DNA of 64,000 nt. Origin: an uncultured archaeon. Its GTDB lineage: Archaea > Thermoplasmatota > Penumbrarchaeia > JASLWR01. The stretch lies in contig CAYSHM010000006.1 of the NCBI GenBank assembly GCA_964430885.1, forward strand, positions 64,001-128,000, given 5' to 3'. Shown here piece after piece: positions 14,594 through 24,507 of this stretch (the first letter of the stretch is position 1; every line of letters begins with the position of its first letter). Both the position numbers and the translations under genes were made by a program. The notes under the pieces are model-generated. The model did not search any database. It had not been told where the DNA came from and worked only from the letters and a program-made list of their open reading frames with translations.

Positions 14594-15223
14594 TTGTCAG
14601 AAGGATTACAGTTGAGGACATTTATATTCATCGATCAGATGCAGCCGCAATTTGCAGCATATCAGGCTACTGTCGGGAGAGGTTATCTGCCAGTATCAGG
14701 TATGGCTGCAATATATATTGAAACTGCACCCGGAATGCCCATCAATCGGGTTACGGATCTGGCATTGAAATATACAAGTGTGAGACCGGCAGAACTAATA
14801 GTGGAGCGAGCTTTTGGAATGTTGGAATTCCATCATGAATCCCAGTCCGAGGTCAGAACAGCGGGAAAAGCCGTTCTAGATGGCCTAGGTTTGGAGGAGA
14901 TGGACAGATATAAACCAAAGGTTGTGACCAATGAGATAATCAAGAAAATAGATGATTACCAGTCAATGATAATCAATCGTTCCTGGAGGGGTATGATGAT
15001 CCTTCATGATCATTCTCTCTTCATTATGGAGACTCAGCCTGCCGCTTATATAACCTATGCCGCAAACGAGGCCGAAAAGGCAGCAGATATCAATATTGTC
15101 GGCATCAGGGCAGCCGGTGCCTTTGGCAGGCTGTACATCAGCGGTTGGGAATCCGATGTCAGGGCCGCAGCGGATGCCGCTACGACGGCCATAGAGGGTA
15201 TTGACGGTAGGGATGATTGGTAG
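14594..15223 (+). CDS. BMC shell protein, permuted tandem-domain trimer (BMC-T, CcmP/CsoS1D/Haliangium T2-like)
   Basis: LRTFIFIDQMQPQFAAY...IETAPG...VERAFGMLEFH...ETQPAAY...AANEAEKAA...GAFGRLY. TTG start preceded by AGGAGG. Confidence 0.92.
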   Translation: MSEGLQLRTFIFIDQMQPQFAAYQATVGRGYLPVSGMAAIYIETAPGMPINRVTDLALKYTSVRPAELIVERAFGMLEFHHESQSEVRTAGKAVLDGLGLEEMDRYKPKVVTNEIIKKIDDYQSMIINRSWRGMMILHDHSLFIMETQPAAYITYAANEAEKAADINIVGIRAAGAFGRLYISGWESDVRAAADAATTAIEGIDGRDDW

Positions 15224-15245
15224 TTCCGCCGACCTAGGTGTCTTT

Positions 15246-15992
15246 ATGGATCCCGACCGTCTCAGGACCATCGTTCTGGAGCAGGTACGGAGATATTTTC
15301 AGAACGAGGGAATGGAGTTCATTCGATATGAAAAGGATTCCGAAGAAGGATCTAAAGGTATATTGATAGTGATAAACCGAACTGATCCATCAATGGACCT
15401 TTTATTCAGCCAGATAAACAATCTGGTATCTGCTGGTCATAACATCACATTGATGAGCACCTCCGAAGTGAGGGCAATATTGGGCCAGCAGGGCTATTGG
15501 TCACTTGACCGGATCACCTACTTGTCTATTGATGATACCCGAAAGGTCAACATGAAAATTGACGAATATTGGTCCCTGCTATTTCCGGTTATAGGTTACT
15601 CCCTGGCCGGAGAGATATCAGCCTTAAAAGATACAAATCCATTGGCGGATTTGGCTTTGACGGCCCTGCGCAGTGGATTGGATGTCGGAGTGGCAGTGGA
15701 TACCCTTGAGACTGTAGGGAAGAAGGCTCGTAGGCCAAAGCTGATCTCCGAGTCCACCAGGATACAGAAGGGCTTATCGGGAATAGGCGTGAGATTGGTA
15801 ACCCTGGAAAATATGGTCAACGAGATGTCCTTTGACAAACGGAGGTTCACAGGCCGAGTGCTGACAGAGGATATAATAAACAGCTATATGTCCCGTGGCG
15901 TGTTCGATATCAATGTGGATGAAGATACTGTGATCACGCCTTTGGCAAGGGAAAGGGCAAGGGAGTTGAACATTCGAATAAATATCATTTAG
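15246..15992 (+). CDS. BMC-associated flavoprotein-like (HFCD/PF02441-like) protein with N-terminal encapsulation-peptide-like helix
   Basis: ATG at 15246 follows an AGGTG SD. N-terminal amphipathic helix MDPDRLRTIVLEQVRRYF. C-terminal VLTEDII...TVITPLARERARELNIRI motif is typical of BMC-locus accessory proteins. Confidence 0.6.
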   Translation: MDPDRLRTIVLEQVRRYFQNEGMEFIRYEKDSEEGSKGILIVINRTDPSMDLLFSQINNLVSAGHNITLMSTSEVRAILGQQGYWSLDRITYLSIDDTRKVNMKIDEYWSLLFPVIGYSLAGEISALKDTNPLADLALTALRSGLDVGVAVDTLETVGKKARRPKLISESTRIQKGLSGIGVRLVTLENMVNEMSFDKRRFTGRVLTEDIINSYMSRGVFDINVDEDTVITPLARERARELNIRINII

Positions 15993-16040
15993 AAATTGAA
16001 TTAATAGGATCAGATATCATAGATCAAGGAGTGTAAGAAA

Positions 16041-16334
16041 ATGAAATTGTGCAGAGTGGTAGGAAATGTGGTAGCCACTGTCAAGGACCGAAACATCGAG
16101 TCCTTCAAGCTGATGATAGTACAACCGGTGGATTTCAAGGAACAGAAGCCCTATGGAGAGCCTCTAGTGGCAATAGATGCGGTTGGTGCCGGCCAAGATG
16201 AGCTGGTCCTGATAGTTCAGGGAAGTTCCGGCAGAATGACCGCTATAACTGACCAGAAACCGTCCGACTGTACGATAATGGCAATTGTGGATTTTGTGAC
16301 CTTAAACGGTGAACAGACCTTTGCAAAACGGTGA
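16041..16334 (+). CDS. BMC vertex pentamer (BMC-P, EutN/CcmL family)
   Basis: MKLCRVVGNVVATVK...VAIDAVGAGQDELVLIVQGSSGR...DCTIMAIVD. Confidence 0.95.
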   Translation: MKLCRVVGNVVATVKDRNIESFKLMIVQPVDFKEQKPYGEPLVAIDAVGAGQDELVLIVQGSSGRMTAITDQKPSDCTIMAIVDFVTLNGEQTFAKR

Positions 16335-16352
16335 TCGAGGGAGGTTTTAATA

Positions 16353-21747: not shown

Positions 21748-21849
21748 GTTAAAAGTTAACAGAGTTAGGATAAATTTATTAGTTCAGTGTAATAATAATA
21801 TAAAACTTAATAATATAGAGTTGAGAGACGAATCTTGAGGAGTGAACCA

Positions 21850-22137
21850 ATGTATATCGGTAAAGTAATGGGAACCGTGGTGGCCACAAGGAAGATAGAT
21901 ACCCTTAAAGGGATCAAACTGCTCCTAATACAGCCCTTGGATGATGATATGAAACCCTCGGGAAGGTTACTGGTGGCCGGGGATGCCCAGGGAGATACAG
22001 GAGAAGGTGATGTGGTATATTTGGTCACCAAGAAGGAAGCCTGTTTCCCCTTCGGTGGTCTGACCCCCCTTGATCACGCTGTGGCGGGTTATATTGATGA
22101 TTATCATATTGAAGAATCTTTAAAAGAGGGGAAATAA
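21850..22137 (+). CDS. BMC-P (EutN/CcmL) vertex protein
   Basis: MYIGKVMGTVVATRK...LLLIQP...VAGDAQGDTGEGDVV...DHAVAGYID. A GAGGAG SD precedes the ATG at 21850. Confidence 0.92.
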   Translation: MYIGKVMGTVVATRKIDTLKGIKLLLIQPLDDDMKPSGRLLVAGDAQGDTGEGDVVYLVTKKEACFPFGGLTPLDHAVAGYIDDYHIEESLKEGK

Positions 22138-22442
22138 GCATAACATGGACACTGCGGACAACCATCCAAGGCTCTATTTACCTGGAAGAAATATTTGGAC
22201 AGTAAATAATAATATAGGAATAAGGTAAGATTAGTGTGTTAATTTAATCCTGTTACCAGGATGTGAATTCATAATAGTATTGGATAGGGCATGGGTATGA
22301 GTAAAGGTAAAAAGCAATAGATGAAAAATTCGAAATCAGCTATTGAAATGTATAATCAATCAAAAATTATTGAGAAGTAGTAGTCAAGGATTATTACAAT
22401 GGAGATACATTGAATCCAAAACAAATCAAGGAGGAAAAATAA

Positions 22443-22736
22443 ATGAGAGATCTACAGAAAATTGCATTGGGAATGATTGAGACAAAGGGAGAGATAGGAG
22501 CTATAGAAGCTGCAGATGCCATGGTAAAGGCAGCCAAAGTGACCCTTATCGGAAAGGATTTCGTCGGCGGCGGCTATGTGTGCGTTATGGTCAGGGGAGA
22601 GGTTGGGGCTGTCAAGGCGGCAATAGACGCCGGTGGAGCCGCTGCAGCCAGGGTCGGAGAGCTTGTCTCAGTTCACGTTATTCCCAGGCCCCACGAGGAA
22701 GTAGAGGATGTTCTGCCTTCCATTGATAGGGATTAA
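22443..22736 (+). CDS. BMC hexamer shell protein (BMC-H, PduA/EutM/CcmK family)
   Basis: ALGMIETKG...[12 protein letters not shown]...GEVGAVKAA...HVIPRPH, with a strong AGGAGG SD. Confidence 0.97.
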
Positions 22737-23067
22737 AGTAATACTGCATTAAATTGTTATTTGCAGGGATGGGCTGAAATATTCGCCTGCTCCCTTAGAG
22801 AACAGGATTTGCATTTGGAGATTTATCCTCAAAATAATAATGATATTCTTTTAGGAAGATCATCTGAATGTTTTATCCTGCAATTTACTCAATAGGATTA
22901 AATCGAATTGATATCTATGGTGATCATGAAAGCAAAGGCCATATGTCAATTACTTCCAGATTGAAATGCGGGTAGTATTGTTACCTTTGATATCAAGATC
23001 CGGGATATGGAATGTATGGCCTAAACACCACGAAAAAATTCAAGAATAGTGATAATGAAGTGATACA

Positions 23068-24507
23068 ATGGAAAGGGAGGAAGCGATCAAAAGGATAACC
23101 GAAGAGGTTCTTGCAAGAATTAGGGGCGCATCTTCGGGTAATTCTTTGAATACCTCACAGGGATCTGCCGCGGATCAATCCGAAAAGGGACGGAGTGCAC
23201 CTTATTTAGCCTCTGGGGGAAAATCCATTATTATGATACTCAGCGGAGACCGGACTATTGAGGATCTGAGAGAGGACATCAGTTCCATATGCAGTAGCCA
23301 GAAGGTTGAAATGATAGTGGTATCCGATTGGGCTCTTAGGTCCTTCAACATCTTTAAACTCAAGGGTTTAGCTCCTGGGATAAAACTGCTCCAGGAGGGG
23401 GACATATTGGGCAGCAAGACAATATCAGACATCTTATCAGACGTTGACTCGGTCTATGTTCTCGACCTGGATATTCCCAGTGCTTCGCGTATTGCAGATT
23501 TTGCTCCAGTGCTGCCTGCTGAAAGGGTTATCACAGGGGCAATTATTTCCGGTAAAAGCGTTATCTGTTCACATGCACTTCTGAGCCCAATGGCAGGGGA
23601 GCTAACTCCTCCATGCGCCCGTGAGGCCATTTCCGCAGTTGAGAAGAAGCTCGTGGCCGTCGGTGTTGCCATGCTTGGTTCGGGGACTTCTTTCAGTGAT
23701 AATGAAGCAGTGGAACAGGCCCTAGCCCGCTGCCCGGCGGGTGAAGGAGAATGTATTGGATGCGGATTGTGCGTGAACCTGAACACAGCAGGCGTGGAGA
23801 ACATCTTTTCAGCCGGAGCCCAGAGGATTAGTACGGCTACCGGATTGGATACCCCCAATCCAGATATGGCTCGTATGATAGATCACACGCTGCTGAAACC
23901 CGCTGCCACAGAGGATGATATCCGGGAGCTATGTGATGAGGCTAGAAGATACAATTTCGCTACGGTATGTGTTAATCCATCCCATGTAGCCCTTGCAGCA
24001 AGGGAGCTGAGAGGAACGGATGTTGGTATCACCACTGTCATCGGTTTCCCCCTGGGAGCAACAACCCATACCGCAAAGTCCATTGAGACCCGGGATGCAA
24101 TAGCCAATGGCGCCAATGAGATAGATATGGTGGTTAACGTTGGCGCTCTGAAGGCTGGCAACGATGATCTGGTAAAAAGGGATATTGCGTCAGTGGTGAA
24201 CGCTGCAGGCAATGATGCTATTGTCAAGGTGATTCTTGAGACCTCTCTGCTGAATGACGAGGAGAAGGTCAGGGGCTGCCTGCTCTCAAAGATGGCCGGG
24301 GCGGATTATGTGAAGACATCCACTGGTTTTGGTCCTGGCGGCGCTACCGTAGAGGATATCCGCTTAATGAGGCAGACTGTGGGCCCAGATATGGGGGTTA
24401 AGGCCTCTGGAGGGATCAGAAATACAGACGATGCCAATGCCATGCTTGAAGCAGGTGCTTCAAGGATAGGTGCTAGTGCTTCAGTTGCCATTGTTAAGGG
24501 CGCATGA
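23068..24507 (+). CDS. deoC: Deoxyribose-phosphate aldolase (DERA) fused to encapsulation peptide, flavoprotein-like domain and Cys cluster
   Basis: C-terminal ~215 aa carry [39 protein letters not shown] and VKASGGIR. N-terminal helix [19 protein letters not shown]. Cys cluster [14 protein letters not shown]. Confidence 0.92.

Follow-up and report, generated by a model that had tools for sequence, protein, structure and literature searches.

The DNA analysed here (the window) is a stretch of 64,000 nucleotides, C6:64001–128000 of the genome of an uncultured archaeon (G000), and between window positions 14594 and 24507 it carries a gene cluster for a bacterial microcompartment (BMC), a protein-shelled organelle, of the sugar phosphate utilization (SPU) type. 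The assembly (3.13 Mb in 44 contigs, completeness 91.6%, contamination 1.4%) places this locus on a 150-kb contig. Genes were identified with Pfam and NCBIfam models, and the genomes used for comparison include those of two further genera in the family of G000 (G001 and G002), a second member of the genus of G001 (G003, 88% complete) and a member of the same class but another family (G005). The locus holds 13 co-oriented open reading frames (ORFs), all on the plus strand and free of internal stops, 12 of which are itemised below. The enzyme names are abbreviated as AldDH (aldehyde dehydrogenase), TPI (triose-phosphate isomerase), RPI (ribose-5-phosphate isomerase) and DERA (deoxyribose-phosphate aldolase, the product of deoC).

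14594–15223, +, BMC-T(dp), CcmP/CsoS1D type (NCBIfam CcmP model 256 bits, residues 4–207)
15246–15992, +, Flav1, stand-alone flavoprotein-like protein (ORF opens at 15201, likely start 15246; no Pfam match)
16041–16334, +, BMC-P1 pentamer (PF03319 96 bits, full length)
16353–17783, +, acylating (CoA-dependent) AldDH (PF00171; PRK15398 655 bits against a cut-off of 403)
17831–19192, +, MNdh/PduS-type NADH dehydrogenase (FMN, two 4Fe-4S), recognised by its domain order
19189–19746, +, BMC-T(SE), PduT-like tandem trimer (PF00936 twice; CPGK)
19835–20350, +, BMC-P2 with a C-terminal tail rich in lysine and arginine (K/R) (PF03319 52 bits, residues 4–95)
20357–21271, +, bacterial-type TPI (PF00121 296 bits, residues 56–302)
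21262–21747, +, RpiB-like protein (RPI) (PF02502 182 bits)
21835–22137, +, BMC-P3 pentamer (PF03319 66 bits)
22443–22736, +, BMC-H, with no other canonical hexamer gene in the locus (full-length PF00936 match of 93 bits)
23068–24507, +, Flav-DERA fusion of 479 aa, the signature enzyme (TIGR00126 287 bits against a cut-off of 117, residues 267–476)

In short form the gene order is Tdp-Flav1-P1-AldDH-MNdh-Ts-P2-TPI-RPI-P3-H-FlavDERA. Most of the spacers are short or negative (−23, 48, 18, 47, −4, 88, 6, −10 and 87 nt), and the BMC-H gene is bordered by longer ones (305 and 331 nt). The initial annotation of this DNA had listed one BMC-H, two BMC-T and three BMC-P genes together with AldDH, a PduS-like protein, TIM (that is, TPI), RpiB and DeoC, and all of these lie intact on the plus strand at the coordinates above. 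What that list missed was a thirteenth gene, Flav1, and the fact that DeoC is a fusion protein.

Shell proteins

The six shell genes (BMC-T(dp), the PduT-like BMC-T, BMC-H and three BMC-P) encode a PF00936 hexamer, tandem-PF00936 trimers and PF03319 vertex pentamers. BMC-T(dp) has its best PDB match in 5v74 (Haliangium HO-5816, 3e-67), also matches CcmP (4ht5, 2.6e-62), and scores only 33 bits with PF00936, as expected for permuted domains; it is a double-stacking permuted tandem-BMC trimer and likely provides the large gated pore. Its orthologues in G001 and G002 are 80–81% identical, and those of BMC-P1 78–79%. A best match in Haliangium holds for BMC-T(dp) but not for BMC-H, whose best PDB matches are of the PduA, EutM and CsoS1 types (1e-37 and weaker), nor for BMC-T(SE), which matches 3nwg (2.9e-47) and PduT (3n79, 2.2e-38). 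BMC-T(SE) carries a CPGK motif (Cys38), and a tandem trimer with such a pore cysteine would be expected to act as an electron conduit.

The tail of BMC-P2 comprises 67 residues (27 K + R, 7 D + E; about nt 20147–20347). It is found only in the genus of G000, as the orthologues in G001, G002 and G005 (120, 118 and 131 aa respectively) end without it, and it must therefore have been gained or lost within the lineage of G000. In Hodarchaeales K/R tails are reported for 58 of 66 operons and bind DNA and RNA (PMC12747264); the tail of G000 may be convergent with these.

Enzymes and putative cargo

The assignment to the SPU type follows from a DERA gene beside shell genes, an acylating AldDH and an RPI with a Cys-to-Asp replacement. 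Flav-DERA consists of an encapsulation-type helix, a linker, a flavoprotein-like domain (about residues 51–205), a CxxCxxC motif and the DERA domain (267–476), and is the sole PF01791 match in the genome. The DERA domain aligns with the solved DERA 8qps (9e-85) through the motifs EIDMV, VKVI.ET and VKTSTGF, and residues C229, C232, C235, D353, K387 and K416 are invariant in the four orthologues (the Escherichia coli numbering D102, K167 and K201 follows PMC11585597, where one SPU6 DERA is reported to be active on deoxyribose-5-phosphate, dR5P). The CxxCxxC between the two domains (window 23740–23775, residues ~222–236) is likewise invariant in 4/4 orthologues and is a possible candidate for a metal or Fe-S site.

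The N-terminal part of this DeoC protein, about 265 residues, found only the protein itself in a word-based search, and an AlphaFold2 (AF2) model of its N-domain has a pLDDT of ~80. Flav1 likewise has no Pfam match, and a PDB sequence search with it gave nothing useful. The database gene call is 248 aa long (263 aa from 15201); an amphipathic helix lies at its N-terminus and a conserved TPLAR motif at its C-terminus. Searches gave three hits with the single protein and four with the profile, and a PF02441 protein is reached by profile at 5.6e-4. Its AF2 model is Rossmann-like (pLDDT 77.9, pTM 0.75), with UbiX, phosphopantothenoylcysteine decarboxylase and EpiD as best Foldseek matches (E ~1e-4, probability 1.0, target-normalised TM 0.55–0.68). 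Flav1 and the DERA N-domain are not significantly similar by BLASTP, but a profile–profile comparison (hhalign 96%, E 3.7e-9, 179 columns) argues that the two are homologous. They correspond to the domain called ‘Flav’ in the preprint on archaeal microcompartments discussed below and, probably, to its ‘DUF’.

In MNdh the domains Complex1_51K (PF01512, 9–155), SLBB (PF10531, 168–214), Fer4 (254–318) and a C-terminal RnfC_N (PF13375, 385–448) follow one another, and its gene overlaps that of BMC-T(SE) by 4 nt. This is the permuted order that defines MNdh (PF01512, PF10531, Fe-S dicluster, C-terminal PF13375; PMC11626177), and the same source describes MNdh and BMC-T(SE) as an NADH-oxidising, electron-exporting module whose genes are adjacent in 97% of 2,172 loci, with a universal pore motif. 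RPI has Asp where 3he8 and 1o1x have, in the alignment, the Cys of the CGTG motif. Cys-to-Asp is reported for all SPU RPIs, together with negligible ribose-5-phosphate (R5P) isomerase activity and a 1:1 DERA–RPI complex (PMC11585597), suggesting that the protein is probably a partner of DERA rather than an R5P isomerase; a housekeeping RpiA is encoded on C4. TPI has an N-terminal extension of ~55 residues which carries an amphipathic helix. It scores 175 bits with TIGR00419 and 175–309 bits with bacterial-type models but only 37 bits with the archaeal-type PRK04302, on which a second TPI, encoded on C2, scores 288 bits.

N-terminal amphipathic helices were ranked among 1702 N-termini of the genome (for AldDH by the hydrophobic moment of the N-terminal 15-mer), and AldDH stands at percentile 99.2, TPI at 96.8, Flav-DERA at 94 and Flav1 at 85. 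The AF2 models of the Flav-DERA N-domain and Flav1 have helices at residues 3–20 and 18–35. Neither a PduL-type phosphotransacylase (PTAC; PF06130, 0 matches) nor Pta was found in the locus or in the 91.6%-complete genome, which does hold two ORFs resembling ADP-forming acetyl-CoA synthetase (ACD; 714 and 711 aa) and four PNP_UDP_1 phosphorylase genes that could feed the pathway. In bacteria T(dp) is a typical component of SPU loci that have no PTAC, and acetyl-CoA has been suggested to exit by way of its larger, gated pore (PMC11585597).

Integration in the archaeal chromosome

Upstream of the locus lies a gene for a PKD-repeat protein (11170–14241), and downstream of it are the following genes.

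24621–26480, +, DHH-family (RecJ-like) protein of 619 aa (DHH 20.5 bits, below cut-off)
28812–30305, +, block of L44e, S27e, aIF2alpha and Nop10 (PF00935, PF01667, PF07541 + S1; Nop10 PRK13130 71 bits against a cut-off of 68)

L44e starts 4.3 kb downstream of the locus, the distance given in the initial annotation, which had also described the locus as flanked by archaeal-style surface-protein genes. The interval is filled by the DHH-like gene, a gene for a membrane-anchored protein of 295 aa and an FKBP gene, and PAC2 follows Nop10.

In composition the locus falls inside the range of the genome. Its tetranucleotide distance is at the 79th percentile of 543 genome windows of equal length, its synonymous-codon distance at the 63rd when ranked among 243 runs of adjacent genes matched in codon count, and its GC content (0.466 against 0.435 ± 0.026 for the genome) at the 88th; ATA and AGG are used in it above even the genome average. 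Elsewhere in the genome C18, C16, C34 and C26:10000–30000 are strong outliers for both tetranucleotides and codons (GC 0.48–0.54 compared with the genome mean of 0.435) and could represent islands, mobile elements or wrongly binned DNA.

Read data came from four runs (X1–X4) of a single marine-metagenome study. In each of X1 and X2 one Logan contig (34,885 b at depth 14.6 and 51,925 b at depth 18.4, respectively) covers window positions 11000–30900 with 0 differences and bridges both junctions of the locus at even depth; the low-depth runs X3 and X4 gave fragments of the locus and its flanks, with some bins uncovered. At the borders of the locus no tRNA, bounding direct repeat or Rfam match was found. 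The same genes in the same order are present in G001 (C119) and G002 (C50), where G002 has one extra BMC-H gene after BMC-T, and synteny continues in both through the DHH-like gene, the 295-aa gene, FKBP, L44e, S27e and aIF2alpha, in G001 also through PAC2 and TatD. Identity to G000 in these two genomes is 53–84% for the locus proteins (Flav1 31%) and 34–83% for the flank proteins. An assembly artefact cannot account for a junction that recurs in three species at corresponding divergence, and its conservation shows vertical inheritance within the family. The earlier proposals that the locus shows no compositional break and shares the codon habits of its flanks, and that it has been assimilated by an archaeal host, are thus supported by the percentiles above, by the bridging of both junctions in two runs with no sign of a chimera, by its position on one contig with the genes from L44e to PAC2, and by the same junction in two other genera.

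The host

No S26e and no actin-family gene were found in G000, which speaks against a host from TACK or Asgard. In a sample of 401 genomes of its phylum (its class holds 37 genomes, and its order four, each a species in one family) McrA is present in 61, among them 48/48 genomes (1.1–2.2 Mb) of one family, f11, of which only two have MtrA (46 without). McrA without Mtr in small genomes of a species-rich family is a combination that we take to be the signature of Methanomassiliicoccales. Together with the missing S26e and actin this makes Thermoplasmatota, already suspected in the initial annotation, the phylum of G000 with high confidence. An atlas search with aIF2alpha gave clusters of Bathyarchaeota, Thermoplasmatota and Methanobacteriota at 0.96–0.97 and leaves the taxonomy undecided. 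In another family of the sample, f21, ORFs of ~190 aa with an MtrA domain occur in 50 of 53 genomes and McrA in none of the 53, so that the stand-alone MtrA-like protein of this family is one of non-methanogens.

Distribution and origin of the locus

PF03319 is present in all four genomes of the order. PF00936 is present in 5/37 genomes of the class and 5/401 of the phylum sample, the five being in both cases the four of the order and G005.

A metagenome scan with an AldDH alignment retrieved 80 loci (rows were kept if the tblastn match spanned half of the query or more; the trees also required a minimum length and absence of stops). Their AldDH proteins are 46–58% identical to that of G000, so the near-identical bacterial copy against which the initial annotation had warned was not seen in this set, and neither the gene order of G000 nor the Flav genes were found in any of the 80. 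A scan of named-genome contigs with the AldDH protein gave only an AldDH of Cutibacterium (48%). In the AldDH tree (84 rows, quick IQ-TREE, LG+G4) a clade of G000, G001 and G002 (support 100) sits in a group of 33 rows (support 97) together with G005, contig L030 and 28 MNdh-containing loci, G005 and L030 standing in an unresolved polytomy with that clade. The nearest relatives lie in SPU-type loci, and in two of these (L030 and L067, the latter flanked by genes for SorC-type regulators, class II aldolase and transketolase) a PTAC gene stands upstream of P1-AldDH where the archaeal loci have Tdp and Flav1. The four archaeal rows form one clade in the tree of DERA domains (43 rows, support 95) and group with a support of only 40 in the PduS tree. 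According to Du et al. the operons of the order JASLWR01 cluster with BMCs of Myxococcota (PMC12747264). For the locus of G000 the Haliangium match of BMC-T(dp) is the one hint at a named donor. A bacterial origin of the locus fits these data, because its TPI is of bacterial type beside an archaeal-type TPI of the host and because BMC genes occur in only 5/401 genomes of the phylum.

Satellite shell cassette

A second set of shell genes was found in all four genomes of the order, G003 included, beside a gene for an M24 peptidase and with no enzyme genes attached; a related gene stands alone elsewhere in G000.

C26:44222–45999 (L026:14223–16000), −, satellite cassette of G000: BMC-P, divergent tandem BMC-T and BMC-H fused to a winged helix-turn-helix domain (BMC-H-wHTH)
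L021:9863–11571, L022:9809–11510 and L023:2283–4391, orthologous satellite cassettes
C3:172678–173703 (L027:8679–9704), BMC-H-HTH paralogue of 341 aa, DeoR-like HTH at ~150–220, alone after a large surface-protein gene

The products are a BMC-P of 91 aa, a weakly PduT-like tandem BMC-T of 178 aa and a BMC-H-wHTH of 220–259 aa, the C-terminal part of which is a winged HTH of DeoR type (24 bits against a cut-off of 21 in the orthologues; the G000 copy scores weakly). EutK is a BMC-H protein fused to a helix-turn-helix domain. The C26 and C3 proteins resemble it in having an N-terminal BMC-H and a C-terminal DeoR-type wHTH, and the C3 protein gives a weak EutK match of 32 bits, but both are far below the cut-off of 218 bits, the P-T-H(HTH) cassette is placed away from enzyme genes, and the host is an archaeon. 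The accessible main text of PMC12747264 has no mention of HTH, helix-turn-helix, satellite or EutK; the cassette may be listed as an ‘incomplete locus’ in Supplementary Table 2 of that preprint.

It is conceivable, although we hold it to be rather unlikely, that the order runs a two-part microcompartment system, in which the SPU operon is joined by the satellite cassette with its BMC-H-wHTH (plus the paralogue) to give a shell with sequence-reading DNA-binding domains, and in which the K/R tail on BMC-P2 in the genus of G000 is an independent second route. If this is true, HTH fusions tiling the shell could anchor a compartment that scavenges DNA to the DNA itself or link the assembly of shells with transcription, and the K/R tail would be a second route that evolved independently and is convergent with the DNA-binding tails of Hodarchaeales.

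Proposed function and alternatives

Taking gene content, domain architecture, motifs, synteny and distribution together, we consider that the locus is most probably a chromosomally integrated and vertically inherited SPU metabolosome operon of a euryarchaeal-type archaeon, inferred to belong to Thermoplasmatota, which acquired it from bacteria long ago. In the scheme that we propose, dR5P made in the cytosol from deoxynucleosides would enter a shell of BMC-H, BMC-T(SE), BMC-T(dp) and three BMC-P proteins, to which the amphipathic helices at the N-termini of AldDH, TPI, Flav-DERA and Flav1 would recruit the cargo. Flav-DERA would split dR5P into acetaldehyde and glyceraldehyde-3-phosphate (G3P), the encapsulated bacterial-type TPI would equilibrate G3P with dihydroxyacetone phosphate (DHAP), and the acylating AldDH would trap the toxic acetaldehyde as acetyl-CoA and yield NADH. 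MNdh would re-oxidise the NADH, and the electrons would reach an acceptor in the cytosol by way of a 4Fe-4S cluster located in the pore of the neighbouring CPGK BMC-T. As no phosphotransacylase was found in locus or genome, acetyl-CoA and CoA would have to exchange through the gated pore of T(dp), and cytosolic ADP-forming acetyl-CoA synthetase would then give ATP and acetate. The route from dR5P to acetaldehyde plus G3P and on to acetyl-CoA had been suggested at the outset and agrees with the accepted SPU scheme.

Several points weigh against this interpretation. The evidence for the operon of this organism is at the DNA level, and its substrate is deduced solely from homology; the scheme gives no role to CxxCxxC, to the RPI-like protein or to either flavoprotein-like domain; the Flav1 helix reaches only the 85th percentile, and RpiB and MNdh have no terminal helix; and the absence of PTAC rests on a genome that is 91.6% complete. 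All four runs belong to a single study, and the assembly of G000 may itself have been built from X1 and X2, whose contigs are therefore independent as assemblies but not as samples. In G003 none of the main-locus shell genes and no Flav-DERA were seen, which may reflect loss of the main locus or a gap in the assembly; its FKBP homologue lies in a different neighbourhood (C1:87862–89141 and C18:1–20000 were examined) and may be a paralogue. Finally, the locus of G005 is on contigs of 6–7 kb without archaeal markers. These contigs are at the 70th–77th tetranucleotide percentile of 44 windows (GC 0.615 against 0.588), a weak argument as binning uses the same signal, and the G005 locus is probably genuine to its host.

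The alternative that survives best, to which we give a minor share of the probability, is that the compartment is real and its chemistry other than simple dR5P catabolism, the candidates being another sugar phosphate, the synthetic direction of the aldolase or an extra redox step via Flav and CxxCxxC. The RPI-like protein has no catalytic Cys, and the role of RPI in SPU BMCs is unexplained even for bacteria (PMC11585597); the two homologous flavoprotein-fold domains and CxxCxxC, kept in 4/4 orthologues, lie outside the standard scheme; and the predicted encapsulation of TPI suggests that further triose-phosphate chemistry matters. Against this, DERA is far above the cut-off of the deoC equivalog model (287 bits compared with 117) and matches solved DERAs at 9e-85 with its active-site motifs kept, AldDH is of the subfamily that acylates acetaldehyde or propionaldehyde, and the SPU6 enzyme mentioned above acts on dR5P (PMC11585597).

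That the operon is instead a decaying or domesticated relic, with cytosolic enzymes and no closed shell, is improbable. The single canonical BMC-H gene in G000 and G001, the long spacers around it in G000 (~95–100 nt in G001) and the apparent absence of the main locus from G003 would fit such a relic, but none of the 13 ORFs is disrupted in any of three genera whose proteins are 53–84% identical, all three shell classes are kept, as are the putative targeting helices and the CPGK motif, and E. coli has been shown to assemble shells from a homologous archaeal set (PMC12747264). Bacterial DNA mis-assembled or mis-binned into an archaeal genome is very improbable indeed, since in spite of BMCs being overwhelmingly bacterial, of the bacterial-type TPI, of a GC content at the 88th percentile and of reads from one study, the X1 and X2 contigs run from the PKD gene through the locus into the ribosomal genes with 0 differences and even depth, tetranucleotide and codon use are in the genome range, the L44e-S27e-aIF2alpha junction recurs in two other species, and with no metagenome locus above 58% AldDH identity no co-occurring bacterial near-copy was found.

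Neighbouring genes and other features of the window

The DHH-like gene stands directly after the operon, co-oriented and syntenic in three genera, and its membership in the microcompartment system is uncertain. Its product, with a long coiled-coil middle part, scores 29 bits on the archaeal RecJ model, and the atlas places it closest to clusters of archaeal DHH proteins (0.91), which is no more than a lead; a role as a nuclease or phosphoesterase that feeds the pathway is conceivable. Two tandem ORFs of equal length, 1403 aa each, lie on the minus strand at 39969–44180 and 44348–48559, and a further minus-strand ORF (1870–4194) encodes a protein of 774 aa with PPC and Big_7 repeats and a C-terminal caspase (Peptidase_C14) domain.

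Comparison with known systems

Protein-shelled organelles were still held to be exclusive to bacteria in 2019 (PMC6620236). The statement in the initial annotation that no characterised archaeal BMC is known has since been overtaken: Du et al. (bioRxiv, November 2025; PMC12747264) screened 15,821 archaeal genomes and report SPU-type archaeal microcompartments (AMCs) in 66 of 111 Hodarchaeales, assembly of shells from a Hodarchaeales operon in vitro and in E. coli, and AMCs in a Thermoplasmatota order, JASLWR01, whose operons have the composition described here. The kind of finding is thus already reported for archaea, and very likely for this lineage too. That organelles of this sort exist in archaea changes the view of archaeal cell organisation, and archaeal microcompartments have been tied to scenarios of eukaryogenesis (PMC12747264). 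To this the present locus adds a clean case outside Asgard, a compositionally assimilated operon whose link to core translation genes is kept in three genera, which shows that a second archaeal phylum has retained it by vertical descent over a long time. The variant without PTAC, combining T(dp) with an archaeal ACD, offers a natural test of how acetyl-CoA and CoA cross a shell, and locus and satellite supply candidate DNA-binding shell parts.

Within the literature searched, JASLWR01 is named only in PMC12747264, where few genomes and few sentences are given to it: an additional T(dp), one H apparently lost, and no PTAC. The AMCs of this order share T(dp), one H, one T(s), three P and the lack of PTAC with the loci studied here, those of G000 and G001 matching gene for gene, and the two H genes of G002 are a difference. 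No passage on a satellite BMC-H-wHTH cassette, on a K/R tail or on Flav-DERA in JASLWR01 was found in the accessible main text of that preprint; the K/R tail in the genus of G000, the satellite cassette and the lack of PTAC and Pta, which would imply export of acetyl-CoA to cytosolic ACD, are possibly unreported details.

Compared with AMC types I and II of Hodarchaeales, as described in PMC12747264, the locus shares AldDH, MNdh, a T(s) with CPGK, three P, RPI, a Flav-DERA fusion, and an accessory ‘DUF’ protein with a putative encapsulation peptide; TPI is found as in type II, and BMC-P2 of G000 has the K/R-rich disordered tail. In contrast, the Hodarchaeales operons have two or three H genes, PTAC, citrate synthase and acetate kinase, and no T(dp), whereas G000 has one H and T(dp), no gene for any of those three enzymes in the locus, and a K/R tail that its sister genera lack. 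Membership of the locus in AMC type I or II was rejected on the single H, the T(dp) and the missing PTAC, together with the absence of the Asgard and TACK markers tested.

The MNdh/BMC-T(SE) module (PMC11626177) is matched with no difference seen at the sequence level: the four domains stand in the same order with PF13375 at the C-terminus, and the adjoining T(s) carries CP(G/S)K. With bacterial SPU metabolosomes (Sutter et al. 2021; Dwyer et al. 2024, PMC11585597) the locus has in common DERA, AldDH, the Cys-to-Asp RPI, a PduS homologue, TPI, putative N-terminal encapsulation peptides and the rule that loci without PTAC carry T(dp). It differs from them in its archaeal host, in a gene order that recurs in none of the 80 metagenome loci, and in having Tdp and Flav1 in place of the PTAC of the nearest AldDH relatives.

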